Source: a virus (Duplodnaviria; Caudoviricetes). From it: a DNA stretch of 64,000 nt. Numbering within the stretch: position 1 is the stretch's first letter; each line of letters begins with the position of its first letter. The notes beneath the pieces are model-generated. The model did no database searches. It was not told where the DNA came from and worked only from the letters and a program-made list of their open reading frames with translations. Of this stretch, positions 35,313 to 64,000 are shown one piece after another. The position numbers and the translations under genes were made by a program. The stretch is from the IMG/VR virus record IMGVR_UViG_3300042549_001429, positions 933 to 64,932 of that record; one strand, written 5' to 3'.

Positions 35313-35723
35313 ATGGGACTATATATACGAGAACTGCAGGACACGGACTACGAGAATATTCTTGTTGGTTGGTGGCAGCAGTGGGGATGGGAGCCTCCAC
35401 AAAAAGACTTCCTTCCTAATGATGGCAAAGGTGGTATCATAGTCTATGACGATGAGACCCCGGTGTGCGCAGGATATATGTACCTTACTAATTCTAAAGT
35501 GGCTTGGGTTGATTGGATAATATCGAACAAGGAATACACAAAAAAGCCACAAAGAAAAGACGCCATTAAGTTATTGGTGTCAGCGTTGACTGAGATATGC
35601 AAAAACACAGGAAGTAAGTATGTCTACGCTTTGATAAAAAACCAAAGCCTTATAGGAACCTATGAGGAACTTGGATACCTTAAAGGTGATTCATACACAA
35701 GTGAAATGATAAAAGCATTATAA
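35313..35723 (+). CDS. GNAT-like acetyltransferase-fold protein
   Basis: GIIVYD..PVCAG.MY..AWVDWIIS..YEELGY; position before the ejection proteins, as for T7 gp13. Confidence 0.6.
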   Translation: MGLYIRELQDTDYENILVGWWQQWGWEPPQKDFLPNDGKGGIIVYDDETPVCAGYMYLTNSKVAWVDWIISNKEYTKKPQRKDAIKLLVSALTEICKNTGSKYVYALIKNQSLIGTYEELGYLKGDSYTSEMIKAL

Positions 35724-41300: not shown

Positions 41301-44300
41301 TTCAAATCAGATTACGTTTGAGAATGCTACCTTAGACCAAGTCGAAGAATATGCGGCTATGATAGCTGCCCTTGCTCCTGAGGTTCAAGAGGCTTCTATT
41401 GCCGCTCAGTATGTAAACGAAGGTGATGCCACGCACAATGCAAACGAGTACCGATTTAAAGTAAACAACATTGACAATGCAATAAAAGCATTGAAGGGGG
41501 CAGGTATAACTGACTTTAGCATAAACGAAAACGATAGCACTGTAACATTTACTGATGTTTTTGACTTCGCAGATGCTCAACTTCAAGATAAAATCGGTAA
41601 GTTTGCAGAGTTATTAGACGAAAATAATACAACTTATGAACAACAGCAATTTAGACCAACCGAATCAAGGTATGTCGACAAGGGAAAGAGGAAAGAAATT
41701 ATTAGAAGAGTTAAGAGCGATGGGGCCCGACCTGAGTCTCGTGGGCAAGGTTTCAATGAGGCCGTTGAGCAGGCAATCCAACGTGACGCAGCCTTCCAAG
41801 GAACAACCTATGAAGAATACTCAGGAGCCAAACCAAAAGGCCCTGCAGCAGGAAACAGACTCTTCAATGAGCCAATCAAGGCAGTTGCGGAAATTGCGAA
41901 TAGATATTATCAACGAGCGTTCGGAACTAAGAGACCTGATTTCAAAGGGACAAGACAGCTCGACAAAGCAAGAGCCAAAAGGATAAGCGATGCCTTTGAT
42001 GCAATGAAGCATTCGCCAAACGACCCTCAGGTTCGTGCGGCATACAATGCTTTGGCTAAAGAAACCATTGCTCAATACCAAGCATTTTTAGATGCAGGCT
42101 ATGTTGTTGAGATAAACAATCAAGAGCCTTATGCAAATTCTCAAGAGATGATTGATGACTTGAGAAACAACAAGCGTATCAAAATATTCTCTACAGAGTC
42201 AGGATTCGGAGATACTCCAATCACTGCTAAGCAAAGAAAAGAAAACCCACTTCTAGCTAAGACTAAGTTTACTGATGTGAACGGGCAGCCTATGCTCGTT
42301 AATGACTTGTTCCGTGCGGTTCACGACTTCTTTGGACACGCTGAGTTAGGCAACTCATTTGGTCCACTAGGAGAAGAGAATGCTTGGAACGTGCACGCAC
42401 GTATGTATTCTCCGTTGGCAAGAAGAGCAATGACCACTGAGACACGTGGTCAAAACTCATACGTAAACTTCTCAGGAATTAACGAAGAGGCTGACAAGAT
42501 AAGAGAGCAATCAAGAAAACTTCGTGAAGAAGGTAAGCTTGAGGAGGCTCTAAAATTAACAGATGAGATTTACGAGAAGACTTCTTTCGCAGACCAAAAG
42601 GTAGGATTACTACCTGAAGAGTTCTCTCAGATAGATGAAGAGGTTGTTGCTGAACCTGTGGCAGAACCGGTGGTAGAAGAAGAGGTAACAGAAGAGTTTG
42701 TTCCTATATCATACGGAGACATTACCGGGGCTGCATTTACCAAGGAAAATGCAATTGACTACGAGGAGGATACTAGAGAAGATACTAACGGAAGACAGTA
42801 CACTTATTTATCATCAATAACCATGGAGGTTGTGGATGGTAATGGGGAAACTGTTGGCACAATCACCAAGCTATCTGATGGAGAGGGATTACTTTCATTC
42901 ACAGCAGAAGACTTAAATGGTCGTACTGTTTTAAAAGGAAAGGAGTTCCCTACACTAAGAGATGCTAAAGTTGCTCTTGCTGAAGTCACCAATAAGATTC
43001 GTCAGAAAGAATTTGATAAGCAGCAGAAGGCTGTTACCAAAGAAAGAGAAGCAGCTAAGTCTAAAGCTGACAAGGCTAAGGCTCGTGAGAAGGCTAAGCA
43101 AAAAGCAAAGGAGCCACAGGTTGAAGAGGAAGTAGTTGAGGAAGTACAAGGCAAGATGGACGAACTTCTTGAGCTTGACCCTAAGCAAAAAGGCACCGGT
43201 CAAAAGATTCTCGATGGTCTTGACAGCATGATTAAAGACATTGAGAAGTTCGAGAAAGGAACTCTTGGTGTCAACATTGCTCTTCCAATAATGAAGGGTA
43301 TCCTTCAAACTATTAGAGCCTTGGTTCAAGCCGGGATGACTTTGCAAGAAGCCATAAAGAAAGCAGCGAAGGACAGCGGTACAACCGTTAAGCAGGTTGT
43401 AAATGGTATCAATGCCATTGGACAGATTGCTCCTATACAAGAAGCATACGATGCGCTGATGGCTAAAGCGGATGCATTAATCGCCCGTCAGAAGTCAAGG
43501 GGTATTGCTGACAAGAAGATTGTGTCCAACTTGGATACAATGATTCGTAACTCAGATGTCTACAAGAATGCCACTGATGCACAGCGTAAGATTATGGAGC
43601 GTGAGGCACGAGTGAAGATGGGTGTCGGTCCACGTAAGGCCGCATCAATCGGACGTGTTATTGGTGTTCTGAAAGACATTACAAACGTATCAAGACAAGA
43701 GAAGCTACAAATCATATCAAGGATTCGTGAGCTGTCAAGAGATGTAGCAAAGGATTTGGCTCAGGAGATTAAAGACCTAGCTAAAGAAGGCAAGATTACT
43801 GCTGTTCAAGCGGCTAATGTTATTGCTAGATTTGGTAATGTCAATCTATTAAATGAGATGTCTGTGTCCAATTTTGTGGACTACATGGCTAAGGTTTTTG
43901 CTGATGCTGATTACGATAATAAAATTAAGGGGGCTAGAAGTAAGATTGCAAAAGCAAGAAATAACATAGCCACTAAGATTGGTATCGCTGATGGGCTAAT
44001 GCTTCCATTACAGAAACTATTTTCAATTAACCCTGAGCTTATACCGGACGCACAACTTGAGCGCTACCTAGAGCTTCTTAAAATGTTTTCTGCAAGTGAC
44101 GCTGTTCTCACGCTTGAAAATAAGGTTGCTGTCAAGAAAGATGTAGACGCTATCCTTAAAGATATTGACGCAGAGCAATCAAAGGCTGATGAGTTGGCTG
44201 AGATATTTAGTAATTCTAAGAACCAAGTATTTAATGATGAGGGTGATTTAGATTACGCTGCATCATTAAAGAAGATGGTTAAGGAAGGAGATATAACAGA

Positions 44301-47300
44301 AGAGGATGCTGAACTTATGCGTAAGTATAAGCAAGATATAATCCCTCAGGTTGAACCTACTCCATTGAGTGACGAAGAGATTGCAAAAAAGAAAGAAGAG
44401 CAAATTGCTGATTTGAAAAAAGCCAAGGTAGTAACCGATGGCCTTCCATCAAGAGATGAGAATAGACTAGCAAAGAGATTGGCTGATTTGATTGCAAATA
44501 CTTCAAAGGAAGACTTAATGAAGTTGAGTCTTACTGACCTAAAGAATTTGTTGAAAGTAGTTAACAACATAAACAATGGATACCTCCCTCACTATGCACA
44601 AATAATGGTGGAGAAAATCAATGCCATTAAATACGGTAAAATTCTTGCAGCTGCAATTAAAGCGGCCAAGCCTTTAAAGTTCTCTGAACTATACTCAAGG
44701 TTTAAGGCTGCTATTATTCGTAGTCAGAAGGGTGGTATTGCTGAGATGGTTAGAAGAAACCCTCTCTACTATATTGACCAAGTATTCGGTGACTTCAAAA
44801 CTAAAAACATATTTGAGGCACTGTTTGAGCAGACCGCAGAAGCTGAAGCGAACTTCAAAGCTGAACTTAAAAAGGTTCAAACCATATTGGAAAAGGCTGA
44901 AGCAAAAGTTGCCAAGTCTTTCAATCTAAACCCTGACGAGACTTTGATGTCTAAGTTCAAGATGATGACCTATATGATTCAGCTTGAGTATGAGTCAAAC
45001 AAAGGTAGCGAACAGGTTAACCCTGCTGCCGCTTACCTTAGGGAGACCATCAAACATATTGACGGAGGTAAGTCAAGATTCGGTGAGCGTGATGCCAATA
45101 TGCTCCAAGATATACTTACCAATTATTCTAAAGATGGAGAGATAGATAATGAAAAACTATTCAACTCTTTCAACCAAGCCGAGAAGGATGCTATCAGTGA
45201 TATTAGGAAGGTCAACGAGTCTTTGAAAGATAAGGCTCAGTACACTGCTGCGATTATTCGTGGTGATGCTATCGACCCATTAAATAACTACGTACACTTG
45301 AATGTGCTTCACGATACGGAGCCGCTCGATGTAAGTGCTGCTACTGACTTCTTGAACCAAGCAAACAACTCACGTAGACCATCAACAAAAGCTAAGTCTT
45401 TAATATCAAGAACTAAAGGCGCTAAGCCTTTGAACTTCGATGTATTTGCTTCTGCTCAGCGTGGCGCTAAGTTTGTCATATTGGATTACAACTTGACCGA
45501 GCCTATCCGTACTGCACGCAGAACAATGAATCAGGCTACTGCTGAATTAGAAGAGCAGGGAAGAATACCTAAGATGCAGAGGGATGTTAAGAACGCAATT
45601 GACGGAGCGTTTGAGGAAGCAGTAAGCAATCTACTTACTAACTCTATACTTCAGAACTCACTTGCTGACGAGGCGATTGACTTTATAAGCAAGCAAGGGT
45701 ATCGTGCAGTTCTTGCAGGTACAGGAAGGTTTGCTGCGGAATTAACCTCAAACATTTCTTATGCGATATTAGCAGACCCGAAGGCATTCACTACAGGTGC
45801 AAAGTATAAAGGTTTGATTATGTCAACGCTTGCTCCTGCTATCATGGAGAATGTAGGAAGCAAGCAGACCAACAGGATATTCCCTAACACCACATTGTCA
45901 GGAAGTTTTGTTGATACCTCTATCCTAAGCCAAGCAACAGGCATTCAAGGCACGAGCTCAAAGAATCCTGTGCTCAACAAGATGCAGCAGATATACAACC
46001 TTACAGGTAAAAAGTATCAGAATGTTATCGAGTTGACTGCAGATACTTTAATCTCTACTCCGGATAAACTCGTGATGAGACCGATGTGGTTTGGTGCATT
46101 TGCTAATGAGTTTAAAAAGGCATCAGGCAGTGAGGTTGACTTCGATAAGATAGCAGCAAACGACAAGGCTTATATGGATGCCAATCAAGATGCAATCCAA
46201 AAGGCCAAGAGAGCAGCAGACCAAAAGTCAGTGATGACAGGTGCTACAGACAATGCCTTTATGGGAATCCTAAAAGGAACTGTAAAGCCTAATCAAAGTT
46301 TCTCATCAAGAGCGTTCAATAACTTCAACAACTACATGACTCGCTTCTTGATATTTGAATATGTTACTGCACGTACAGCCATTTATGCAATGGTTGGAGA
46401 CGGCTCATTATCTAAGCGTCAGGGAGCCGCAATGCTCGCTGCTGTAGCCACACGTATGACTGTGTACACATTGCTTTCTCAGATGATGGCAAATGGTATC
46501 ATGGGATTGTTTGGAATAGGAGACGATGAAGAGGAGGATGAAAAATCATTGATGCAAAAAATCGGTCAGTCTCTTACAGGTACATTTACTTCGCTATTGA
46601 TTGGTCGTGACTTTGGTAATGCCACTAAGTTGGTAATCAACTATGGTCTTGAGGAAATCAATGAGAAGCACCTTGACTTCCTAAGAGAAGGAGAGTACGA
46701 CCCATACAAAGATGGAATCGCTTACTCAATAATTCCAAGAGAGGACAGACCTGATGATAACTTGGGCAACCTTCTTATGAATATGACCGGTTCACTTGGC
46801 CCGGCATACAACACCGCTAATCTTATTTACAAAAACAGAAATAGGATTGTAACGGGAGAGACAGAGAAGAAAGAACTTGATGCTATTGAAAGAGAAGACC
46901 GAACAGTTAAAGAACGTATCCCACTAGAACTCTTAGGAAACTTTGGTTTGATTCCTTTTTACAAGGATGTAAAGAAGATGGTAAATAAATCAATCTACGC
47001 AAGCATCAAAGAAGCAGAGAGAGTAGCAGAGAGAAACAAGCGAAGAGATACTGACTTGCTTGGTGGATACGAGAATAAGACTGACCTCAAACGCTATAAT
47101 CCTGAGCTATACGAGAAGAACTTTGGTGAAGGGTCAGAATGGTACGAGTCAACCAAAGAAGAGCGTGAGGCTAAAGAAAAAGAGGCCAAGGAGGAACAGA
47201 AGATAAAAGACAGGATGAACAACTATACTCCTGAAGGTGAAGGTGGCTTTGGCTCCGCAGGATTTGGAAAAAAGAAAAGCAAGAAGAAAGGTTCAGGTGG

Positions 47301-47334
47301 AGGCTTTAAGGCTAAGAAGTTTGGAGGCGACTAA
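38329..47334 (+). CDS. Giant internal virion/ejection (polyvalent) protein
   Basis: 3001 aa, helical, G/A-rich hydrophobic stretches, FRAVHDFFGH..GEENAW..ETRGQNS domain. Confidence 0.7.
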   Translation: MNELEKLYNVLFREGKTSKSFQEFQTQYANDNAYREKVYEVVLRDGFTDKDKETFFSVYKPSSSVQSPAAQLPVAEEIKKKESTTALPSADGGLAQQGPKNRAPLFKPEGFDKQMPTAADATFVKKPKLDLVEKKVATAVDDRALEVEKRKAEDLFDKQTVKPRVDQSVYLKERLSNINKNLINREEEYVVPEMQYQFGDLGFKFEETGATGDFMKVVAPNGKTIEVSLDNFLDSSSEAEANKLQSFIKNNTPQKGLFVLEKTMREQDKKFNSQKQVDDEIKKINADVTALNQKQKNFLLKKTAYENEIAELEKTPASQRNTEQFNAKLNQLEQRRAAMTEEVQSILGEEEAIKNKGKALDTSVGKYTIAKSKQGTWGGGIWDSFLGGIGKMASAAASTTIDIMTEIAPAGFGMSPQDVKNVTIEKAAKIGVAPPTANQNIEDWKKTLTPQQLNDWEDEMDDYIKKSLKKEVLPSTRVGLKTLAGDPDTTLEWENLKKQGFWGGAFLGLAESLPAMIGGSGPAGWAQRTAQMYGQVSDGLAQEMENDPEFADISENEKLAITLPIGITSAVLEAYGLKNVLASTGIINKITMSALGKAGRGVGAKSFRELVENEVQSRLLKGTLILGAAGLAEGETGALQEVSETTFKAIYNEIKGKDMFETPESALDFVENVVVAGAQEAVGGFVLGVPSSVSAAYSEKGFLKMDDNVFRTFELMANDETLQSAYIAKLKEKIANGEITVEEGKNKLNDYRNSVGLFRQLPDGLTTQQKKEAMNLLKEKRDLEQYVNGKDASLVSRQKNRINAINEELTKISEQDGGQVQSETTPEATKRRERIVELLKVLEDDNTAIEYDTSNKLPLEERNKVIEEIKTLKAEEDAVQKQATSQVPVQSGAGVSQEVAQGEPQAEPQVATQEGVQEEVVSSKTRVNIAPFFNTKVETVQEAEQLRQAPEYKAYKETLVKLAEQLGIPGIIIDDVIGGYKNESGEEIVEISNQITFENATLDQVEEYAAMIAALAPEVQEASIAAQYVNEGDATHNANEYRFKVNNIDNAIKALKGAGITDFSINENDSTVTFTDVFDFADAQLQDKIGKFAELLDENNTTYEQQQFRPTESRYVDKGKRKEIIRRVKSDGARPESRGQGFNEAVEQAIQRDAAFQGTTYEEYSGAKPKGPAAGNRLFNEPIKAVAEIANRYYQRAFGTKRPDFKGTRQLDKARAKRISDAFDAMKHSPNDPQVRAAYNALAKETIAQYQAFLDAGYVVEINNQEPYANSQEMIDDLRNNKRIKIFSTESGFGDTPITAKQRKENPLLAKTKFTDVNGQPMLVNDLFRAVHDFFGHAELGNSFGPLGEENAWNVHARMYSPLARRAMTTETRGQNSYVNFSGINEEADKIREQSRKLREEGKLEEALKLTDEIYEKTSFADQKVGLLPEEFSQIDEEVVAEPVAEPVVEEEVTEEFVPISYGDITGAAFTKENAIDYEEDTREDTNGRQYTYLSSITMEVVDGNGETVGTITKLSDGEGLLSFTAEDLNGRTVLKGKEFPTLRDAKVALAEVTNKIRQKEFDKQQKAVTKEREAAKSKADKAKAREKAKQKAKEPQVEEEVVEEVQGKMDELLELDPKQKGTGQKILDGLDSMIKDIEKFEKGTLGVNIALPIMKGILQTIRALVQAGMTLQEAIKKAAKDSGTTVKQVVNGINAIGQIAPIQEAYDALMAKADALIARQKSRGIADKKIVSNLDTMIRNSDVYKNATDAQRKIMEREARVKMGVGPRKAASIGRVIGVLKDITNVSRQEKLQIISRIRELSRDVAKDLAQEIKDLAKEGKITAVQAANVIARFGNVNLLNEMSVSNFVDYMAKVFADADYDNKIKGARSKIAKARNNIATKIGIADGLMLPLQKLFSINPELIPDAQLERYLELLKMFSASDAVLTLENKVAVKKDVDAILKDIDAEQSKADELAEIFSNSKNQVFNDEGDLDYAASLKKMVKEGDITEEDAELMRKYKQDIIPQVEPTPLSDEEIAKKKEEQIADLKKAKVVTDGLPSRDENRLAKRLADLIANTSKEDLMKLSLTDLKNLLKVVNNINNGYLPHYAQIMVEKINAIKYGKILAAAIKAAKPLKFSELYSRFKAAIIRSQKGGIAEMVRRNPLYYIDQVFGDFKTKNIFEALFEQTAEAEANFKAELKKVQTILEKAEAKVAKSFNLNPDETLMSKFKMMTYMIQLEYESNKGSEQVNPAAAYLRETIKHIDGGKSRFGERDANMLQDILTNYSKDGEIDNEKLFNSFNQAEKDAISDIRKVNESLKDKAQYTAAIIRGDAIDPLNNYVHLNVLHDTEPLDVSAATDFLNQANNSRRPSTKAKSLISRTKGAKPLNFDVFASAQRGAKFVILDYNLTEPIRTARRTMNQATAELEEQGRIPKMQRDVKNAIDGAFEEAVSNLLTNSILQNSLADEAIDFISKQGYRAVLAGTGRFAAELTSNISYAILADPKAFTTGAKYKGLIMSTLAPAIMENVGSKQTNRIFPNTTLSGSFVDTSILSQATGIQGTSSKNPVLNKMQQIYNLTGKKYQNVIELTADTLISTPDKLVMRPMWFGAFANEFKKASGSEVDFDKIAANDKAYMDANQDAIQKAKRAADQKSVMTGATDNAFMGILKGTVKPNQSFSSRAFNNFNNYMTRFLIFEYVTARTAIYAMVGDGSLSKRQGAAMLAAVATRMTVYTLLSQMMANGIMGLFGIGDDEEEDEKSLMQKIGQSLTGTFTSLLIGRDFGNATKLVINYGLEEINEKHLDFLREGEYDPYKDGIAYSIIPREDRPDDNLGNLLMNMTGSLGPAYNTANLIYKNRNRIVTGETEKKELDAIEREDRTVKERIPLELLGNFGLIPFYKDVKKMVNKSIYASIKEAERVAERNKRRDTDLLGGYENKTDLKRYNPELYEKNFGEGSEWYESTKEEREAKEKEAKEEQKIKDRMNNYTPEGEGGFGSAGFGKKKSKKKGSGGGFKAKKFGGD
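41089..41104. repeat. 16-bp palindromic motif copy, intragenic
   Basis: GTGTCTTCAAAGACAC. Confidence 0.9.
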
Positions 47335-51638: not shown

Positions 51639-54059
51639 TTAAAATGGTGGTTCCTCATTTGTTGTCTTCTTGCTTCTGATAATTATCCATCTACCTTGTT
51701 GGTCTCTGTCCTCCTCAGGCATCGTGCCCTCCTTGTAAATAGCGTAGGCTATCAACCACTTGTAGAACTTTGTCCTGCTGATTGTCATCCTACCCCTCGG
51801 GCCGTAGTCAGGATACTCATCAATGAAGTTGGAATACAATTCGTTCTTGTATAGTCTCGTGTCCGTCTGCAGTGCTACGTTCCTTTCGTTGTTGTCAACA
51901 AGTCCACACCACTCTATAAACTCGTGGCAAGTCTCTGCTGATAACTGACGAATCTTTAGGTTGACAAACTTACTCTTCACAAGTCCTGTCCTCAGGTAGT
52001 TGGTCAGACATCCAATCATGTAGTTGTCGAACTCACACCAATCGTCATCGTTCCAATCACCGAACATCAACTTACCAAACTCATCTAGTGGGGTAAACTC
52101 TTTCGTGTAGTACTGATGCAACTCCAACTCCCACTTACGTCTTGCGAATGAATTACCTGCCCCCTTGATAGCATAGTTGGTAGTTATCGCAATCTTAGGT
52201 GACTTGCTGAATGGTATCTTGATAGCGTCCTTGTTCTTCTTCTCTAGTGTCAAACCCTCGGTCACTACACTGAACAGTCGCTCGAAGTCGAAGTGCTTTC
52301 TCACATCATCGAAGCAAAGTATCTGCGTGTCTGCAGACACCAACTGATAAGCGAAGCTGCGCTCGAATGCGAATGACTTACCGTCAATCACCACAAGTTT
52401 TTTCATCTTACTCAGGGCATTCATCAATAATCCTTTGCCCGTTCCTCCTTCAGGGTTGTCACTGATTACCTCATCGTTCAGAATCACAGCAGGGCAGAAG
52501 CTCAGGTTCTTGTAGCCATGGAGTAGGAATCCAATCGTACTCTCCATCGTCCTGACTCTGTTATCATCACCCCCGTTGATATTGCTCACGAACTTTTTGA
52601 AGTCACATTTTTGAGTCACACCACACAACGTGAAGTTTCTGTCTATCACGTGGTCTTTCCATACGTAACCACCCAAGTCCAAATAGTCTAGCGTGGTAAC
52701 GCCATCCTTGGTAATTTTTATTGCGCAGTTTTTGTAGTACAGGTATGACGACTCCTTGTTGTCAGCGATAAAGTAAATGTCAATCGTAGACAGAAGCGAC
52801 AAGAACTCTTCCTTGAAGAATCTAGTTTGGTCAGCGAAGTAATTGTACACAGCCACATCGTCCAACTCCAATAGGTGCGTAAGCACGAAGTCCTTAATCT
52901 CTTTCTCACTCGTGTGGTCAATCAAGTTGTTGGTGACCTTAACGAATATGTAATTCTTGCCACCCTCAGGGCAGTACTTGTAGAAGCCATTGTCCTCAAG
53001 GAACTGCTTGAACTGAATGTGGATTATCTTGATGACCCCCTTATCGTTTCTGTCCCAAAAAGTTTGTTTGGAATTTTCCTCCTCAACTTTTGTGAGCACT
53101 GATTCGATGGTCTCGCTATCCAAGTTGGAGTCTTGCAATTGGATGCGTATCTCTTTTTTTGATACGCCTCTTCTCAGTTTGGCTTTGATTGAATTGATTC
53201 TCTCCTCGTCCTCGTAGTACTTGGTACCGAAGTTAGCAGTGTGTCTGTAGGCTGAGTCAATTGTTGTACCAATCTCCCTAAGTGAGAAGTCGTCTGAAGC
53301 GAACTGATTAAGCACGTAGGAGGCAAGGCTTTTGTTGATACCGAAGTCGTTGAACGCCATCGCTAGAACGTATGCGTTCTGATTACGCTGACCCTCACTC
53401 ATCGGATACTTTTTCTCCCACCACTTTACAAGTATCTCTACAATCTTATTCTCATCTGTGATAGGGATGGTAGCCTTGTCTCTCGTTCTACTCACCTCCG
53501 TGTACTCAGGCTCCTCAATTACATCCCAAATGGATGAGTTGTCATTAACGTAAATTAAGGGGTCGTAGGACTCGTAACATACTCGGCTAAGGTTCTTGCT
53601 CGTCTTATCGAAATAAGCGCTGTTAAAGTACTTTTCTAGGCTATTAAAGAAACTTGTATGGTTGTCTGCATCTGCAGGAATCTTAACCAATACTTTCAGG
53701 CCATTGCCTGATGGTGAAATGAATACTGAGAAGACATATTTGTTCTTGCTCAGGTTCTCTTTGTCCTGCAGTAATTCTTTCTGCTTGGTGTAGCCATCAA
53801 AGTCCAAGCATATCAATCCTGAATGCTGAAGCAATGAAGCGTCTGTCCTCTTGTTGAATGTACCGCTGAAGCAAATTGCAGGCAGCTGTTTCTTGAGCTC
53901 CTGTCTCTCGGGCTTGTTTTTTTCCAAGCGTATTTTCTTTACCAACTCCTTAGTCGCACCTGAGCCATCCTTAATCCTCTCAAGGATTACGTGTACATCA
54001 CGGAAGAAAGGTGTGTCGGTGTCTCTAATGCTTTGGAATATAGTTACAGTATGTGTCAT
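51639..54059 (-). CDS. Primase-helicase (BT4734/VirE-N-like primase, PriCT, P-loop helicase)
   Basis: HSGLICLDFD, FISPSGNGLK, SRVCYESYDP, EGQRN, GGTGKG, FDD. Confidence 0.85.
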   Translation of the reverse strand: MTHTVTIFQSIRDTDTPFFRDVHVILERIKDGSGATKELVKKIRLEKNKPERQELKKQLPAICFSGTFNKRTDASLLQHSGLICLDFDGYTKQKELLQDKENLSKNKYVFSVFISPSGNGLKVLVKIPADADNHTSFFNSLEKYFNSAYFDKTSKNLSRVCYESYDPLIYVNDNSSIWDVIEEPEYTEVSRTRDKATIPITDENKIVEILVKWWEKKYPMSEGQRNQNAYVLAMAFNDFGINKSLASYVLNQFASDDFSLREIGTTIDSAYRHTANFGTKYYEDEERINSIKAKLRRGVSKKEIRIQLQDSNLDSETIESVLTKVEEENSKQTFWDRNDKGVIKIIHIQFKQFLEDNGFYKYCPEGGKNYIFVKVTNNLIDHTSEKEIKDFVLTHLLELDDVAVYNYFADQTRFFKEEFLSLLSTIDIYFIADNKESSYLYYKNCAIKITKDGVTTLDYLDLGGYVWKDHVIDRNFTLCGVTQKCDFKKFVSNINGGDDNRVRTMESTIGFLLHGYKNLSFCPAVILNDEVISDNPEGGTGKGLLMNALSKMKKLVVIDGKSFAFERSFAYQLVSADTQILCFDDVRKHFDFERLFSVVTEGLTLEKKNKDAIKIPFSKSPKIAITTNYAIKGAGNSFARRKWELELHQYYTKEFTPLDEFGKLMFGDWNDDDWCEFDNYMIGCLTNYLRTGLVKSKFVNLKIRQLSAETCHEFIEWCGLVDNNERNVALQTDTRLYKNELYSNFIDEYPDYGPRGRMTISRTKFYKWLIAYAIYKEGTMPEEDRDQQGRWIIIRSKKTTNEEPPF

Positions 54060-54062
54060 TCT

Positions 54063-54222
54063 ATGTCGTTTTAATGTCGATTCTATGTCGCTTATTGATA
54101 GTTAACTATCTGATTACTAGAACTAATGTCGATAATGTCAATTTTATTCTTAAAATATAATTTAAAAAAAATAAGAAGAATAGATACACACATATAGAAA
54201 TATGGGAGAAACGTCTTGACAT
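54063..54222. repeat. ATGTCG iterons, 14-bp palindrome GATAGTTAACTATC and AT-rich tract: candidate origin
   Basis: ATGTCG at 54063, 54074, 54085, 54126; ATGTCA at 54135; palindrome 54097-54110. Confidence 0.55.
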
Positions 54223-54242: not shown

Positions 54243-54269
54243 AAAAAAAGGGGAAGTTTACACTCCCCC
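54243..54269 (-). terminator. Intrinsic terminator after SSB gene
   Basis: GGGGAG-TGTAAA-CTTCCCC + T7 on the - strand. Confidence 0.7.
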
Positions 54270-58174: not shown

Positions 58175-58375
58175 TTAAGTGTTTATAAATCCTCCTTCAA
58201 TTGCTATAGTCCGTCCCTTCTCAAGGGCTCTGTTTAATGATTCGTAGTCCTCAATTAATCCTTCAGAGCCATCATCGTAGACAACGAACAACTCGAATAG
58301 ACCTGAACTGAATACCTCTTTTGCTTTGTCGGTTACCACGAACCACACGAAGCCGTCAATAATTTTTACTTCCAT
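58175..58375 (-). CDS. Hypothetical early protein
   Basis: 66 aa; first gene downstream of hammerhead HH-D. Confidence 0.65.
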   Translation of the reverse strand: MEVKIIDGFVWFVVTDKAKEVFSSGLFELFVVYDDGSEGLIEDYESLNRALEKGRTIAIEGGFINT

Positions 58376-58402
58376 GATTAAATTGATTTGATTGATTAAT
58401 TT

Positions 58403-58453
58403 TCCGTTTCATCCTTTCGGAATCGTCAGTCAGGACACCCATCCTGATACGGA
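58403..58453 (-). ncRNA. Type III hammerhead ribozyme HH-D (U.U at base of stem II)
   Basis: UCCGUA^ UCAGGA UGGGUG UCCUGA CUGACGA UUCC GAAA GGAU GAAA CGGA; predicted cut 3' of 58448. Confidence 0.85.
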
Positions 58454-58458
58454 GGGCA

Positions 58459-58474
58459 GTGTCTTTGAAGACAC
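58459..58474. repeat. 16-bp palindromic motif copy in extended hairpin 5' of HH-D
   Basis: GTGTCTTTGAAGACAC. Confidence 0.9.
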
Positions 58475-58488
58475 CACCCCTGAGGATG

Positions 58489-59580
58489 CTAGGCTTGGAA
58501 CCTGAGCACCTCACTCTCACTGAACCACTCACCGCAACCACTACAGTGGTAGTTCGAGAACCCGTCATGCTCCAAGTCATGGAAGCACTCCACACACACA
58601 GGCTTCTCATTGAGTACATCAAAGTCGCAGTCATCGCAGTCATCATCAATGAAGTCTAGCAAACTCAATTGGTATTTGTTAGCCACATACTTTGTCTCCT
58701 TCAAGTCCTCCTCCTCGTAGTACCATGCCCTGCTTGTCTCCTGAATATACGAAGTGTGAAACATCTCACCCGCACTCGTCTCCTTGATATTGAAGTAAAT
58801 CCAACAGGTCAAAGACTTACCCTTCACAACAATTGGCACCTGCTTTCTCCTGTACCAAGTCGGGTGACCCTCCAACCTGTCAAGGTTTGCCAACACCGTA
58901 CCACTCACCTTGAACACGTCCACCTCCACATTGTAACCTTTTCCACTCTCGTCAATCAAGTAGGGAAGTCCCCTGATTATAAGCGGATACTTGTTTAAGG
59001 TCTTGCCCTTACCCACGTGCTTGGAACTTGTCAGGTAGCGATTGTAATTGTTGTAGCCCTTCTTGAGCGTACCATACACCGCAACCAAGTTATCCTCCAA
59101 CACATTGTCTTTGCTGTACCACACACCGTCACGCTGTGTCCACAACTCTTTGTTGTAAATCTGATACGTCCTGCTGTGCGTGTTGATAGTCACGAACCTG
59201 CACTCATGCTGCTCCAATTCTTTTTTCCACTTGTGGCGGGGCACTCTCCCGAGGCTCTCAGCCAATACACGTGAGTCACTCTTGTTGACATTACCCAAGC
59301 CACGTATCGTGCCATTCATCATAAGCCACTCATGCTTGTTGTCACCGCATCTGAATGGGTGCGTGTTCTCTTTGTTGATGGCACCCACAGTGGCGTACCT
59401 GAAGTGAGCAATGAAAGGGCGCTCTGTATCTAGCACCTTGTACTCTGCTGATTTGTGATAGGTCACCTCAAAGGTATCCAACCATATTACCCCCAAGCCA
59501 TGAGGATTGATTCGTGCTGAAGTCTTTGCGACCTCCTTGGACATTTGCTTGCCCTTCTGTTTGATAATGATTACACACAT
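58489..59580 (-). CDS. Class II glutamine amidotransferase - gamma-glutamylcyclotransferase - Zn finger fusion
   Basis: True start MCVII (Ntn Cys); NPHGLG, HFRYAT, NTHPF, MNG, SDS; then VAVYGTLKKG..LDRLEGHP; CxxC..CxxC. Confidence 0.85.
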   Translation of the reverse strand: MCVIIIKQKGKQMSKEVAKTSARINPHGLGVIWLDTFEVTYHKSAEYKVLDTERPFIAHFRYATVGAINKENTHPFRCGDNKHEWLMMNGTIRGLGNVNKSDSRVLAESLGRVPRHKWKKELEQHECRFVTINTHSRTYQIYNKELWTQRDGVWYSKDNVLEDNLVAVYGTLKKGYNNYNRYLTSSKHVGKGKTLNKYPLIIRGLPYLIDESGKGYNVEVDVFKVSGTVLANLDRLEGHPTWYRRKQVPIVVKGKSLTCWIYFNIKETSAGEMFHTSYIQETSRAWYYEEEDLKETKYVANKYQLSLLDFIDDDCDDCDFDVLNEKPVCVECFHDLEHDGFSNYHCSGCGEWFSESEVLRFQA

Positions 59581-59602
59581 AGATAGATTTGGTTTGTGGG
59601 CA

Positions 59603-59618
59603 GTGTCTTTGAAGACAC
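59603..59618. repeat. 16-bp palindromic motif copy in 5' leader of GATase gene
   Basis: GTGTCTTTGAAGACAC between promoter and start codon. Confidence 0.9.
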
Positions 59619-59646
59619 AGAACCCGATTAATAAACGAGTAATAGA

Positions 59647-59678
59647 CAAAGATAATACATAGAATGTACATATCCAAA
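59647..59678 (-). promoter_or_regulatory. Bacteroidota sigma promoter (-33 TTTG, N20, -7 TATCTTTG)
   Basis: Both consensus elements present. Confidence 0.75.
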
Positions 59679-59686
59679 TTTATTTT

Positions 59687-59848
59687 TTAGTAGACCTTCT
59701 TTGCCTTGAACTTTGAGCGCTCAAGATTCGGTCGGTCTCCAATGAATTTGTAGTAGGCTTTGTCAACCGCCTCCCACTTTGTGTGGGCTGTTACGTTCAG
59801 CACGTAGACAGTCCCGTAGTAGATTTTAAAGTAGTGTAAACTCTCCAT
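59687..59848 (-). CDS. Small early protein (53 aa, not in ORF track)
   Basis: MESLHYFKIYYG..KFKAKKVY; fills the operon gap. Confidence 0.55.
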   Translation of the reverse strand: MESLHYFKIYYGTVYVLNVTAHTKWEAVDKAYYKFIGDRPNLERSKFKAKKVY

Positions 59849-59849
59849 G

Positions 59850-60035
59850 CTATTTGATTTTAGTTAGGTTAAAAGGGATGGCATCCAAGCCATACTCAAA
59901 CGTGTAGCCCTCAGCCTCACACCTGCTAAGCAGGTCAGCGCAAGCCTCATACGTGTTGTCATCCTCAGCGAACTCGCTCAGGATTAATTGTACCTTGTAA
60001 GGTAGCGTCTCGATTACTTCAAATAAGTCTTCCAT
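59850..60035 (-). CDS. Hypothetical early protein
   Basis: DLFE..GYTFEYGLDA.PFNL. Confidence 0.65.
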   Translation of the reverse strand: MEDLFEVIETLPYKVQLILSEFAEDDNTYEACADLLSRCEAEGYTFEYGLDAIPFNLTKIK

Positions 60036-60082
60036 TTTAATTTTGTTTTGTGGAGGGTTTCAACCCCCTCGGGTTTGAAATT

Positions 60083-60131
60083 CTGTTTCGTTCTTTAGAA
60101 CTCATCAGCCCGGGCACACACCCGGGGACAG
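60083..60131 (-). ncRNA. Type III hammerhead ribozyme HH-C
   Basis: CUGUC^ CCCGGG UGUGUG CCCGGG CUGAUGA GUUC UAAA GAAC GAAA CAG; predicted cut 3' of 60127. Confidence 0.92.
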
Positions 60132-60151
60132 CCGGGAGCCGAAGCCCCCGG
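60132..60151 (-). other. C(UUCG)G hairpin immediately 5' of HH-C
   Basis: CCGGGGGC-UUCG-GCUCCCGG. Confidence 0.75.
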
Positions 60152-60155
60152 ATTA

Positions 60156-60365
60156 TTACCTACCAACCATAAACTCTTGCTCGATAGCGAAATTTTTCAG
60201 GTCACTCTTGGTGACCTCACCTATGATTAGGTGCACGTTGCTCTCCTCCGTACTCCTAGCAATGAATTGATTGGTTTTAAGCAACACGTTCCACTCATTG
60301 GCAATCTCATTTGCCTCCTGTTTTGTGCCTACAAAGTAGGTCTTCACTGAAGTAGTCTTTTCCAT
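60156..60365 (-). CDS. Hypothetical early protein
   Basis: 69 aa ORF. Confidence 0.65.
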   Translation of the reverse strand: MEKTTSVKTYFVGTKQEANEIANEWNVLLKTNQFIARSTEESNVHLIIGEVTKSDLKNFAIEQEFMVGR

Positions 60366-60370
60366 TTTGA

Positions 60371-60913
60371 TTATTGATTGATAGTTGTCAACACTCGATT
60401 GAAGTCCTCAGGTCGCACGACCACGAAGTAATTCGGTCTATACACCCCGTCCGTATCACTCTCCCACCTTCTGTAAGGCACACCCAACGCCATCAAGCCT
60501 ATCTCAATGGGCACAAGCGTGCCAAGGTCATTGCTATGCCACACCGAATACAGGGGCTTGCTATAGCCACCCTCAGGAATCCACACGCTAGACAGGTCGA
60601 ACTCAGGCTCTGCCTCAGGGATGAAGTCACCCACAAAACTTTCCACGTGCACCCACTCACCGTTCCAAGCGTGCCCGTTCAAATACCACTGCCCTTTCTT
60701 TTGCACTATGCTCACGTCAGGGATGCCGTTCAACCGCTCCTTTGTTGTTGGAGTAGGCCAACCCGCATTGGTTATCCAAAGGCCGTCCGTCCTGAACTCA
60801 GCAATTGAATGGCCATGCAGCCAAATAGTTCGGCCATCCGTCCACGTGTTGCCGATTCGTCTGTACTCGTTGCGCAAAAAAGCGCTCACAATTTTTTCAG
60901 TTACTTGTCTCAT
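60371..60913 (-). CDS. Hypothetical early protein
   Basis: LHGHSIA..GWPTPTTKERLN motif recalled from phage early proteins. Confidence 0.7.
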   Translation of the reverse strand: MRQVTEKIVSAFLRNEYRRIGNTWTDGRTIWLHGHSIAEFRTDGLWITNAGWPTPTTKERLNGIPDVSIVQKKGQWYLNGHAWNGEWVHVESFVGDFIPEAEPEFDLSSVWIPEGGYSKPLYSVWHSNDLGTLVPIEIGLMALGVPYRRWESDTDGVYRPNYFVVVRPEDFNRVLTTINQ

Positions 60914-60917
60914 TTTG

Positions 60918-61112
60918 TTATTGGTTTTTGGTTGCTGAATAAATTCTTAATCCGTTTACTTTTTGCACGCTCACTTGGAACTTGCTGTGAATAGCCTCAA
61001 GGCTTGCCTTGTACTTTGCCACCTGCTCGGGGGTCAAGTAAAGCAGGCGGTCGATTACGTCCTGAACTATCTCAGCACGCTCATTGATTGGGTCTTGGTC
61101 TTTGGTTTGCAT
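60918..61112 (-). CDS. Hypothetical early protein
   Basis: Start moved to MQTKDQ, downstream of HH-B. Confidence 0.6.
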   Translation of the reverse strand: MQTKDQDPINERAEIVQDVIDRLLYLTPEQVAKYKASLEAIHSKFQVSVQKVNGLRIYSATKNQ

Positions 61113-61136
61113 AAAATAAAATTTGAAATGTGGTTT

Positions 61137-61187
61137 GCTGTTTCGTTCTTTTGAACTCATCAGGGAGGGCACTCACCCACCGACAGC
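61137..61187 (-). ncRNA. Type III hammerhead ribozyme HH-B
   Basis: GCUGUC^ GGUGGG UGAGUG CCCUCC CUGAUGA GUUC AAAA GAAC GAAA CAGC; predicted cut 3' of 61182. Confidence 0.9.
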
Positions 61188-61188
61188 A

Positions 61189-61204
61189 GTGTCTTTGAAG
61201 ACAC
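61189..61204. repeat. 16-bp palindromic motif copy 5' of HH-B
   Basis: GTGTCTTTGAAGACAC. Confidence 0.9.
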
Positions 61205-61215
61205 CACTGCCACGC

Positions 61216-61434
61216 CTAGAACCTCTCAGGCTTGTTGCGCTCGGGCTTGCTGAAAAGCAGCACCCCCGCAACAAAAAGCAGGGATAACTCAGCCAAGAAA
61301 AACACAGCCAAGTAAAGCAGGCTAATAAAATTGAACTCAGGTAAATCCTGCACAAGGGCAACACTAACTCTGAAGAGGGACACAGCCACAAAAATGTAGC
61401 AAAGGGTAAGGGTAATTTTCTCGAACTTTTTCAT
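61216..61434 (-). CDS. Small 2-TM membrane protein flanked by two hammerheads
   Basis: Two long hydrophobic segments. Confidence 0.65.
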   Translation of the reverse strand: MKKFEKITLTLCYIFVAVSLFRVSVALVQDLPEFNFISLLYLAVFFLAELSLLFVAGVLLFSKPERNKPERF

Positions 61435-61458
61435 TGTAATATGGTTTTAAATTGGTTT

Positions 61459-61510
61459 GCTGTTTCGCCCTTTGGGGCTCATCAGGCGGGGCAACACACC
61501 CCGCTACAGC
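61459..61510 (-). ncRNA. Type III hammerhead ribozyme HH-A
   Basis: GCUGUA^ GCGGGG UGUGUUG CCCCGC CUGAUGA GCCC CAAA GGGC GAAA CAGC; predicted cut 3' of 61505. Confidence 0.92.
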
Positions 61511-61532
61511 GGAGGGGGATTGAGCCCCCTCC
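61511..61532 (-). other. GC-rich hairpin immediately 5' of HH-A
   Basis: GGAGGGGG-CUCAAU-CCCCCUCC. Confidence 0.75.
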
Positions 61533-61539
61533 CTTTGCA

Positions 61540-62400
61540 TTACCGCAGGAATCCTCGGATGCTATCGCCCTCCTCGCCTGTGTTTATGTAGGCTTGGAAC
61601 GCCTTTGCTAGTTTTAGCACCTCCTCAGCCTTTTGGGCGTCCCCGTTGTACATGGAAAGGATAACAGGGCGCACACGCTTGATAAATGAATCGAAAGAGC
61701 CTGTGGGATTATTTACCGAAAAGTCAACCAAGTGGTAAAACAATTCGTAGCGTCTCATTACCTGCTTTACGCTCTCAAAGCGGGACGGCAAGCGGAACTC
61801 AAGGCAAGAGCCCTTCACCAAGGCAACTTGGTAGCGGTCACCGTAGTGCAACGGGTCTAGGCGCTTGTTGCTCCCGCAGTACCTGTTTGTTAGCCTGTTT
61901 CTGAAGAGGGCAAGCACCACGCCTGCATTTTTGCGCACCTTGCAAAGTAAATCCGTCCCATCCAAGCCCTCGCAGGCAATTGTGATGTGACCCCCGCAAC
62001 GTCTATCTGAGGGGCTGTAGCGGTCATCAATGATTTTTTCCGCTTTGTAAATCATATCGTACACCTTTGTCCTCCATTGCCCCGCAGGGAGCAAAGGGAG
62101 CACATGGGTCACCGCCTCATAGCCGCAGGATGCATCCCGCTCAAAGCCGCAAAACAATTCGTACTCCCGCACCGCATTGCGGCTCAATTGATTTTTCTCA
62201 ATTTCAAAGCCTATGGTGAACCTTGAGGCGTATTCGACCCCGTCAAACTTTATGGCTTTTTGGTCGGCTTTTTTAAGCCCCGCAACGTCCACGCTGTATT
62301 TGGACTTATTCAAAAACAAGGGCTGTGGCTTTCTGTGATAGCCCGCTACTTCGCCTCTTTCTAGTTCGCCTGTGATTTTGTACTCGATACCTTTTTGCAT
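61540..62400 (-). CDS. Putative amidoligase (COOH-NH2 ligase)
   Basis: IGFEIE..RDAS..YEAVT..CGGHI..LEFR motif order. Confidence 0.75.
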   Translation of the reverse strand: MQKGIEYKITGELERGEVAGYHRKPQPLFLNKSKYSVDVAGLKKADQKAIKFDGVEYASRFTIGFEIEKNQLSRNAVREYELFCGFERDASCGYEAVTHVLPLLPAGQWRTKVYDMIYKAEKIIDDRYSPSDRRCGGHITIACEGLDGTDLLCKVRKNAGVVLALFRNRLTNRYCGSNKRLDPLHYGDRYQVALVKGSCLEFRLPSRFESVKQVMRRYELFYHLVDFSVNNPTGSFDSFIKRVRPVILSMYNGDAQKAEEVLKLAKAFQAYINTGEEGDSIRGFLR

Positions 62401-62417: not shown

Positions 62418-62433
62418 GTGTCTTTGAAGACAC
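62418..62433. repeat. 16-bp palindromic motif copy, intergenic
   Basis: GTGTCTTTGAAGACAC. Confidence 0.9.
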
Positions 62434-63106: not shown

Positions 63107-63157
63107 TTTTAATGGTTTATGTGGTTGAATAGGTCAATTGTCCGTCAATTGCCTGTA

Positions 63158-63187
63158 CAAATATAGTCAAAATCTAATTGCTCCAAA
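63158..63187 (-). promoter_or_regulatory. Early Bacteroidota sigma promoter (-33 TTTG, N18, -7 TATATTTG)
   Basis: Both consensus elements at the head of the minus-strand operon. Confidence 0.75.
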
Positions 63188-63332
63188 CTTTTTTTCTGTT
63201 TTTGTTTAATTCTAGTATAAATCTTTTTAGCCTCAGGGCTTTACGGGAGGCACAAAGGGGCTGTTTTGTTTATGTCTACAGACTACAGGAGGGGGGCAAA
63301 GCCCTTTCTCTTTGCCTGTGGGCTCTTTGTTA

Positions 63333-63348
63333 GTGTCTTTGAAGACAC
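63333..63348. repeat. 16-bp palindromic motif copy in non-coding region
   Basis: GTGTCTTTGAAGACAC. Confidence 0.9.
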
Positions 63349-63351
63349 AAA

Positions 63352-63423
63352 GGGGGCGCAACGGGCGCAACAAAGGGAGGGAGGGGCGCAATACGGGGCG
63401 CAATACAGGGCAACGGGGGGCGC
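63352..63423 (+). repeat. GC-rich short repeats (GGGCGCAA x4 plus variants)
   Basis: GGGCGCAAC, GGGCGCAAC, GGGGCGCAATAC x2, GGGGCAAC, GGGGGGCGC. Confidence 0.7.
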
Positions 63424-63645
63424 TTTACGTCCTGAGGGGGTGCTGCGGTGCTACAGCCATGGCAAAAAGGCAAAAAATCCTGAGGGGCGGAGGCAAAACG
63501 TACCCCCACCCCTCGAAAAAAAAGTCGTTTTCGGACACGGGCTGTCTTCACCAAACCGCTATATAGCCCAAACACTCCGGGTATCTGATAATTTTTTTAT
63601 CTTTACCCTGAAATATTTCGTTTACTGTTTTAAAACAAAAAGATT

Positions 63646-63879
63646 ATGAAACTAAATTTGAAGAACTCGATTTACTCTAAGGGCTACACGATGGGTAGTG
63701 GCTTAGATGTAGAGAAGGGTCGGTTGATTAACAATCGTCCTGATGGCATGACGGGCATTGCTAAGGCTGCCGAGGTAAAGAAAGCAATGAAGCAAGCTGA
63801 GAAGGTGAGCATGATTGCTGATGGTGTTAGTTTAGGATACCTTAAAGCAGAGATACTTGAGGGTCCTGAAAAGATGTAG
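63646..63879 (+). CDS. Hypothetical protein
   Basis: 77 aa; followed by a terminator. Confidence 0.65.
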   Translation: MKLNLKNSIYSKGYTMGSGLDVEKGRLINNRPDGMTGIAKAAEVKKAMKQAEKVSMIADGVSLGYLKAEILEGPEKM

Positions 63880-63947: not shown

Positions 63948-63985
63948 CGACATTTCTAACACAGTTTTATGTCGTTTTTATGTCG
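63948..63985. repeat. Second ATGTCG iteron cluster
   Basis: Inverted CGACAT at 63948; ATGTCG at 63969 and 63980. Confidence 0.55.
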
Positions 63986-64000
63986 TTTTTATTTTTATAA

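Follow-up and report, generated by a model that had tools for sequence, protein, structure and literature searches.

Hairpin-hammerhead modules at orthologous gene junctions of uncultured phages and their proposed role in processing a polycistronic transcript

Background

Perreault et al. 2011 (PMC3088659) described multiple hammerhead ribozymes flanking single genes or short gene blocks of variable identity in prophages, proposed that such clusters process long phage transcripts and, in the accessible text, reported in vitro cleavage of three tandem arrangements, of which one was cleaved in E. coli too. The available part of a 2019 review (PMC6765202) repeats the idea of processing and differential stability, urges more work and regards most bacterial and phage hammerhead-type ribozymes as functional orphans. 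Here we analyzed a window of 64,000 nucleotides (nt), bases 933-64932 of the 64,932-bp virus record IMGVR_UViG_3300042549_001429, which has direct terminal repeats and is estimated to be a complete genome, and in which four hammerheads on the minus strand each lie directly behind a strong hairpin. An earlier note on this stretch had read them as stereotyped cassettes (stop codon, hairpin, hammerhead and A-rich leader) that yield stabilised or circular mRNA units.

Like the clusters of 2011, those described here consist of same-strand hammerheads, close together, which bracket variable phage genes or blocks and for which transcript processing has been proposed (PMC3088659). Unlike them, all hammerheads here are of type III, and they are found in uncultured phage contigs of ~45-67 kb, where dozens of genomes carry them at orthologous junctions of the same operon. 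Furthermore, a hairpin directly precedes 56 of the 72 unique hammerheads studied here, while the main text of the 2011 paper mentions none: “terminator” and “stem-loop” are absent from it and “hairpin” is used for ribozyme loops only, although its supplementary figures may show flanking structure (PMC3088659). With clustered phage hammerheads on record since 2011 (PMC3088659), the present locus is a moderately interesting variant. In the literature covered, from which most subscription journals were excluded, no description was found of a natural hairpin-hammerhead module or of hammerheads in crAss-like phages.

In the early mRNA of phage T7, host RNase III cuts between genes, inside a hairpin, and thereby leaves a 3' hairpin on the upstream messages. 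The locus studied here resembles those sites in that intergenic cuts of a polycistronic early RNA would leave an upstream 3' hairpin, but here the predicted self-cut lies 5-7 nt past the hairpin, would produce cyclic-phosphate and 5'-OH ends and would involve no host enzyme.

A second parallel is engineered. The pRAP unit consists of a stem-loop, a twister ribozyme, a ribosome-binding site (RBS) and an open reading frame (ORF), and without the stem-loop only the last cistron is well expressed, according to the available text of that report (PMC9872166). In both pRAP and the phage locus an ORF is followed by a stem-loop, a self-cleaving ribozyme, a ribosome-loading leader and the next ORF, the stem-loop lying before the cut so that a released cistron would end in a hairpin (PMC9872166). 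On the other hand, pRAP is engineered, uses twister, operates in E. coli and carries a Shine-Dalgarno RBS (PMC9872166), whereas the phage module is natural, uses a hammerhead and has A-rich, G-poor leaders without an evident Shine-Dalgarno sequence. By analogy, the phage module may be viewed as a natural counterpart of the pRAP design.

Two further systems share single traits with the locus. The promoter early stem-loops (PeSLs) of T4-type phages, in the accessible text on them, are likewise a repeated stem-loop motif between small variable genes, with gene swapping at the motifs; PeSLs contain an early promoter and no ribozyme, whereas the window modules have a ribozyme (PMC2839356, PMC4122927). 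Viroid-like RNAs and retrozymes likewise have same-polarity hammerheads that bracket units whose ends fit joining by tRNA ligase or RtcB, but their units are described as non-coding, highly self-paired and proven circular (PMC7229834). Of the marks of viroid-like RNAs and retrozymes, two same-polarity hammerheads flanking a unit are found in the window, while a non-coding, self-paired unit is not: the units here hold 1-3 ORFs, are protein-coding and are DNA-encoded in a phage operon.

Results and discussion

Four type III hammerheads behind stop codons

A covariance-model scan of the 64-kb window at E<=1 identified three hammerheads on the minus strand: hammerhead 1 at 61457..61512 (RF00008, 43.6 bits, E 3.2e-6, full length 1-54; GUA cleavage site), hammerhead 2 at 61135..61189 (43.4 bits, E 3.8e-6; GUC site) and hammerhead 3 at 60080..60134 (35.0 bits, E 8.8e-4; GUC site). 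Hammerhead 4 at 58401..58455 (32.5 bits, E 1.1e-6; GUA site) was found only in a search of the phage's own genome, in which hammerhead 3 reached E 2.1e-7. All four are type III, full-length RF00008 matches at the places where the earlier note had put ribozymes. The window scan returned no other ribozyme class at E<=1; its sole other match, a weak GcvB-like one at 35552-35689 (26.2 bits, E 0.095, cut-off 42), was taken as chance.

The CUGANGA ... GAAA core is present in all four hammerheads, and the minimum-energy fold of hammerhead 1 contains all three stems. The standard pairs next to the core (10.1-11.1, 1.1-2.1, 15.1-16.1) are present in hammerheads 1-3; hammerhead 4, with the core CUGACGA, has U-U at 10.1/11.1, and stem I of hammerhead 2 carries one U-U mismatch. 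Moreover, the core pattern CTGANGA..GAAAC occurred five times against 1.05 expected, four of the five being the hammerheads, and a covariance model built from the four and run unfiltered over the whole window found these four and nothing else. Judged from sequence, the four hammerheads are genuine by every computational criterion except the Rfam score cut-off, and self-cleavage is predicted.

The predicted cuts, derived from the cmscan alignments and the sequence, fall at 61505/61504, 61182/61181, 60127/60126 and 58448/58447 for hammerheads 1-4 respectively, and the units between them are 323, 1055 and 1679 nt long, as in the earlier note; a direct-repeat finder gave matching spacings of 322, 1055 and 1679 nt. 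The cuts lie 35, 34, 29 and 41 nt past the preceding stop codon, in line with the distance of about 40 nt claimed before, and the next start codon follows each ribozyme by 22-44 nt.

Conservation, covariation and synteny in related phages

Searching for exact copies of the string that spans core and stem II in hammerheads 2 and 3 yielded 42 viral contigs, many of them 45-67 kb long, and a 43rd locus was added by protein search with the 286-amino-acid (aa) gene that precedes hammerhead 1. These 43 loci contained 78 model matches with 64 distinct sequences, ~35 of the copies being additional to those picked by the exact pattern. In the alignment, 97.7% of 949 cells were paired, compared with 36-48% when partners were slid by 1-3 columns. 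Changes on both sides were seen in 12 of 15 base pairs, and all six stem I pairs covary; the type III architecture, with stems I and II looped and stem III open, is supported by this covariation. Furthermore, C3, U4, G5, A6, G8, A9, G12, A13, A14, A15.1 and U16.1 were invariant in all 64 distinct sequences, and loops I (UGNGUR) and II (NAAA) were conserved among the distinct relatives. The cleavage-site nucleotide (position 17) was C in 49, A in 13, U in two and never G, in agreement with the NUH rule. The invariant core, the never-G site and the compensatory changes therefore indicate selection on RNA.

Placement was equally regular. A same-strand ORF ends upstream of every unique hammerhead with enough flank (71/71), the distance from stop codon to cut has a median of 38 nt (18-50 nt in 59/71), and a start codon lies 9-49 nt past the ribozyme in 68 of 70 cases (median 22). 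The gene order is shared as well: a hammerhead follows the 222-aa and 286-aa genes, another follows a set of variable small genes and the 180-aa gene, and a third follows more small genes and the 53-aa and 363-aa genes, with the 52/104/131-aa genes after it. Hammerheads after the 286-aa, 180-aa and 363-aa homologues recur across loci at protein identities of 44-85%, and among the 23 related loci with protein matches most have a 286-aa homologue (44-76% identity) just before a hammerhead. In five relatives whose whole records were searched, there were 3-4 hammerheads each, all within 2-4 kb. At the nucleotide level, no match was obtained when the 91 nt of hairpin 2 and hammerhead 2 were compared by BLAST with 50,697 phage records.

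The U-U at 10.1/11.1 is a recurrent variant, seen in ten hammerheads: that at 58401-58455 of the window and nine in relatives (L017:8, L010:9546, L012:3164, L039:6032, L005:6911, L028:12553, L028:9651, L016:178 and L030:145). Several of these are the copy that follows the 363-aa gene, whose product has a GGACT domain. The conserved variant may cleave more slowly or only under certain conditions.

A sense-strand hairpin abutting stem III

Directly before each of the four hammerheads, as the earlier note had seen, stands a strong hairpin without a U-tract, and none of the four is among the intrinsic terminators (GC-rich hairpin plus U-run) listed on the minus strand. Folding placed hairpin 1 (8 bp, 6-nt loop, GC-rich) at 61511..61532, ending 1 nt before stem III of hammerhead 1, and hairpin 2 at 61188-61205, with a repeated 16-mer (61189-61204) as its core and an extended 13-bp form at 61182..61211. 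Hairpin 3 (8 bp, UUCG loop) at 60132..60151 ends at the first position of stem III of hammerhead 3, and hairpin 4 (12 bp with G-U pairs, 16-mer core 58459-58474) at 58453..58480 likewise ends at the first stem III position.

The survey of relatives, in which the 48 nt ending at the first stem III position were folded in 72 unique cases, found the same arrangement. Segments folding at <= -10 kcal/mol made up 56 of the 72, compared with 45 of 400 random 48-mers from the same loci (Mann-Whitney p 2.5e-22). The gap between hairpin and stem III is 0-2 nt in 53 of the 56, and the tail predicted to remain after cleavage is 5 nt in 26 cases, 6 nt in 23 and 7 nt in four (53/56 in total). The sense strand folds more stably than the antisense strand in 49 of the 56, because of G-U pairs, and a GTGTCTT..AAGACAC core is common to 32 of them. 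This abutting geometry, the short fixed tail and the sense-strand bias together argue that the hairpin is an RNA-level, sense-strand feature. Thus the hairpin-hammerhead module is stereotyped well beyond this genome.

The proximity of the two elements suggests another use of the hairpin, namely as a folding aid that stacks on the 4-5 bp stem III and insulates the ribozyme from upstream coding sequence, as engineered insulators do. Coaxial stacking is possible at the 0-2 nt spacing, and in 51 of 72 cases shuffling the 42 nt upstream raised the predicted cost of the hammerhead fold (mean 3.47 kcal/mol native vs 3.90 shuffled, Wilcoxon p 0.004). However, this effect is small, and for hammerhead 2 it is reversed (6.9 kcal/mol native vs 2.3 shuffled), since the extended hairpin 2, 13 bp with G-U pairs, pairs with that ribozyme's own cleavage site and the 5' strand of its stem III. 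Moreover, the same hairpin is found at ribozyme-less junctions (62418, 59603 and 54683), and some hammerheads (16/72) have no strong hairpin at all. A small extra role in ribozyme folding is possible on these models and compatible with transcript processing; that folding is what the hairpin is for is unlikely. As for hammerhead 2 itself, the extended hairpin may slow it before cleavage, while after cleavage it is predicted to form a blunt-ended 3' hairpin.

The 16-nt palindrome and the leader are not specific to the cassette

The 16-mer GTGTCTTCAAAGACAC that forms the core of hairpins 2 and 4 recurs throughout the genome: the window has 11 sites where 0.06 would be expected, one copy having TTTAAA. 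Five are in plus orientation (3174, 19055, 26119, 41089 and 50102) and six in minus orientation (54683, 58459, 59603, 61189, 62418 and 63333), and only two of the 11 lie beside a hammerhead; the 16-bp palindrome hairpin of the earlier note is thus present, while its tie to the cassette is lost. Six copies occur in the minus-strand early block, all in gaps between genes, and at least three lie within long ORFs (19055, 41089 and 50102, the last antisense to its gene). The 16-mer was also found in at least 120 viral stretches, up to nine per stretch and often several per contig. It may be a protein-binding site in RNA or DNA. Similarly, of the proposed cassette, the stop codon, hairpin and ribozyme held up and the A-rich leader did not: the 25 nt before 40 start codons genome-wide have A at 0.48-0.53 and G at 0.10-0.11, and the leader is not cassette-specific because it is common to starts across the genome.

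A repeat so widespread also fits a DNA-level explanation, by which hairpin and hammerhead repeats are homology patches, or cassette boundaries, for swapping small early genes between co-infecting phages, with cleavage being secondary. Gene content between the conserved hammerhead positions does vary, 66-aa and 69-aa genes turning up in different units (L005, L013, L017 and the window), and the small units code for unrelated proteins; the PeSLs of T4-type phages, as far as their accessible descriptions go, are a precedent for cassette boundaries (PMC2839356, PMC4122927). In lake metagenome runs, one DNA contig (X3) joins 61204 to 61457, the outer edge of hairpin 2 to the 3' edge of hammerhead 1, so that the 72-aa gene in between is skipped or replaced, and a form seen in X1 and X3 leads from 59620 to 60364 through 23 other letters and so lacks hammerhead 3 along with three small genes. 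Both forms fit swapping at module edges, but they are weak evidence because of their short sides and 90% likeness, the X3 joint consisting of one contig with 30 letters on one side. Above all, homology patches require neither an invariant core, nor a cleavage nucleotide that is never G, nor compensatory changes that preserve three helices, and the G-U-dependent strength of the hairpin on the sense strand (49/56) is likewise at odds with a role in DNA. We therefore consider it unlikely that gene swapping explains the modules, although it is compatible with their acting on the transcript.

Predicted processing into end-protected mRNAs

We propose that the hairpin-hammerhead modules self-process a polycistronic early transcript into end-protected mRNAs, and we put the probability of this reading at roughly 0.6. 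Under this model the leftward operon would be transcribed as a long polycistronic RNA, which the four hammerheads would punctuate by self-cleavage. Each upstream mRNA would then end in a stable hairpin followed by a 5-7 nt tail with a 2',3'-cyclic phosphate, an end that would be a poor target for 3' exonucleases and poly(A) polymerase, while the first nucleotide of each downstream mRNA, paired within stem I, would carry a 5'-OH and be followed by the folded ribozyme, an unstructured A-rich leader of ~22 nt and the start codon. In E. coli, 3' exonucleases require a single-stranded toehold longer than such a 5-7 nt tail, poly(A) polymerase requires a 3'-OH, and RNase E favours a single-stranded 5'-monophosphate. 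The outcome would be discrete blocks of 1-3 genes whose stability and translation are uncoupled from those of their neighbours and for which host RNases are not needed.

Cleavage in vivo, polycistronic transcription and the stabilising effect are what we infer. The earlier note had left stabilised and circular units side by side, and we favour the processed, end-protected half because the ribozymes are conserved, their positions are syntenic, the hairpin is predicted 5-7 nt from the new 3' end and the layout equals that of pRAP as described in the accessible text (PMC9872166).

Several observations weigh against this reading. Work on the glmS ribozyme reportedly indicates that a 5'-OH can destabilise RNA in hosts with RNase J. 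None of the four window hammerheads reaches the Rfam gathering score of 48.5, although the matches are full length at E 1e-6 to 1e-3; this threshold misses all four copies, which routine annotation would overlook. According to the accessible text, Perreault et al. rejected candidates with a mismatch next to the core, and hammerhead 4 has such a U-U (PMC3088659). As to conservation, one hammerhead per locus was picked by a search pattern in which the core, stem II and part of stem III are constant, the related sequences are not independent and their alignment was fitted to the model. Moreover, the nearest and only named phage with a homologous region, MW202828 (68% DNA identity over the GGACT gene), has no hammerhead in that region (MW202828.1 40854-54262; L048, 13.4 kb), where gene gaps are short; at least one related lineage can therefore do without the ribozyme. 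Predicted folding energies are unfavourable to hammerhead 2 because of its own extended hairpin, the 16 hammerheads without a strong upstream hairpin depart from the module, and the occurrence of the hairpin at ribozyme-less junctions and inside long ORFs means that its primary role may differ from capping ribozyme-made ends. Finally, metatranscriptome X20 (13% of sampled words) gave eight contigs of ~90-206 nt (~150 nt typical) at depth 2-7 on 58300-61700; they cross none of the cleavage sites, contain no back-junction and are uninformative on processing or circles. Run X23 gave a single 37-nt piece.

The two weaker-looking ribozymes raise the alternative of down-regulation or timing, in which cleavage destabilises downstream genes via 5'-OH-dependent decay or is conditional in slow variants such as hammerheads 2 and 4. 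Regulated cleavage was suggested for slow phage variants by Perreault et al., in the text available (PMC3088659), and both the U-U beside the core, kept in hammerhead 4 and nine relatives, and the competing fold of hammerhead 2 would suit it. However, in most copies the core matches the consensus perfectly and the stems are well paired, both ends look protective, with a hairpin cap at the 3' end and structure at the 5' end, and the 55-nt motifs show no sign of an extra domain that could bind a ligand or act as a switch. We regard such a regulatory function as quite unlikely.

The ends predicted for the units bear on the other half of the earlier claim, by which the 5'-OH and 2',3'-cyclic phosphate would be joined by host RtcB, or by a hammerhead running in reverse, to give translatable mRNA circles. 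That this end chemistry suits RtcB is established, as named in the reference list of PMC8782182, the part of that paper drawn on here, and tandem same-polarity hammerheads do bracket units, of 294-3284 nt in the 35 adjacent pairs in relatives. In hammerheads 2 and 3, the 5' strand of stem III is complementary at 5/5 positions to the 3' strand of the preceding ribozyme, so that a nicked hammerhead could form, and 17 of the 35 adjacent pairs are 5/5 complementary, compared with 26% of 4458 cross-locus pairs. Yet the reverse pairing, which is irrelevant to circularisation, gave the same mean (4.27 vs 4.27; fully paired 12 vs 17, of 33), and the complementarity of the ends is explained by shared ancestry because this control has an equal mean. 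Only 2-3 of 5 positions are paired in the orthologous units of L010, L039, L012, L009 and L045. Of the units only that of 323 nt was folded (z = -2.06); its predicted structure engages the 3' tail in a 13-bp hairpin and does not bring the two ends together. No RtcB was found in the phage genome, RtcB being the only RNA ligase family searched for, and a hairpin beside the cut makes sense for a linear end rather than for a circle. Furthermore, circular or spliced products of other clustered phage hammerheads went undetected according to Perreault et al. (data not shown there; PMC3088659), who in the text available had already published the circular-RNA idea in 2011. We judge circular mRNAs to be very unlikely, and this half of the earlier claim is not upheld on these searches and models. 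It is likewise very unlikely that circles closed by host RtcB or by the ribozymes carry the conserved GUGUCUUCAAAGACAC hairpin so that a phage factor can recognise them and control what becomes of them. If true, these would be the first natural ribozyme-made circular mRNAs in a bacterial virus.

Gene block and genome setting

Long ORFs run on the plus strand to ~47.3 kb and on the minus strand from 47.9 to 63.1 kb, and the hammerhead cluster forms the promoter-proximal part of the leftward block, where the genes are small; a Sak-type annealing protein, a PDDEXK exonuclease, a primase and a helicase are encoded farther downstream. Because of this layout, small genes followed by recombination and replication genes, the leftward block at the genome's right end is probably early. 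Pfam matches to a Crassvirus muzzle protein (E 2.1e-8) and a BT4734-like primase domain tentatively suggest a distant crAss-like phage. The DNA runs that contain the stretch are labelled mostly as lake or freshwater metagenomes.

The last gene before hammerhead 1 in the ORF list is the 286-aa gene (61540..62400, minus strand, as are the other genes of the block), which has no Pfam or PHROG match. The 323-nt unit has as its sole gene that of a 72-aa small hydrophobic protein (61216..61434; 19-residue hydropathy maximum 2.54), with its start 22 nt past hammerhead 1. The 1055-nt unit holds three genes (60156..61112) for proteins of 64, 180 and 69 aa with gaps of 4 and 5 nt, the 180-aa protein having an N-terminal Kyano_Gp96 / phrog_554 match. 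By ORFs and domain matches, the 1679-nt unit (58489..60035) encodes proteins of 61 and 53 aa and, after a 106-nt gap, one of 363 aa (58489-59580) with a short stretch resembling class-II glutamine amidotransferases, a GGACT (gamma-glutamyl cyclotransferase-like) domain and a C-terminus rich in Cys; its gene is the best conserved of the block (55-83% identity in relatives) and is nearly always followed by a hammerhead. A grouping of the small units as one gene class was rejected, as of eight distinct small-unit proteins two are hydrophobic and the others are unrelated soluble ones.

Gene gaps inside the units are 1-5 nt or the genes overlap, while the block gaps of at least 37 nt each contain a hairpin, and four of these seven also contain a ribozyme. 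Two hairpin-only gaps lie close to the hammerheads: the 106-nt gap before the 363-aa gene, with the hairpin at 59603-59618, and the 37-nt gap between the 222-aa and 286-aa genes, with the hairpin at 62418..62433 on the minus strand. At the latter junction three more distant loci (L018, L021 and L028) have a hammerhead.

A canonical hairpin with a U-run lies at 54250..54269 on the minus strand, downstream of the recombination genes, and ordinary terminators are therefore also used by the phage; another strong hairpin with a U-run, at 63482-63514 on the same strand, is a canonical site upstream of the first early gene. Sigma-70-like promoters were uninformative (17 found vs 15.2 expected). The long non-coding stretch before the first early gene (63107-63650, minus strand) contains three GC-rich TTGCGCCCC-like repeats along with the 16-mer copy at 63333, and short direct repeats (TTTTATGTCG-like) occur at 63954-63992 and again at 54059-54086 beside the start of the primase gene; both kinds of repeat may be promoter or origin signals.

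An N4-style hairpin promoter, a signal for a virion polymerase, was also considered for the hairpin. The 3001-aa ORF at 38329-47334 might be expected to encode a crAss-type virion RNA polymerase; its sole Pfam match is a SHOCT-like domain, and a simple pattern search found no DFDxD motif in it. The available text on phi14:2 reports no common motif upstream of early transcripts (10.1101/2020.03.07.982082).

Conclusions

The element that is new here is a sense-strand hairpin abutting stem III of a hammerhead at orthologous junctions of one operon in many uncultured phages, in which ribozyme motifs, their conservation and covariation, and a stereotyped geometry are observed together. This phage group is an unusually clean natural case, with ribozymes at orthologous junctions in dozens of genomes, with the same junction found either as hairpin only or as hairpin plus ribozyme, and with the geometry that is required in synthetic ribozyme-split operons. 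It thus makes a question testable in nature: whether early messages owe their stability and their ratio to self-cleavage together with a 3' hairpin, with no part played by host RNases.

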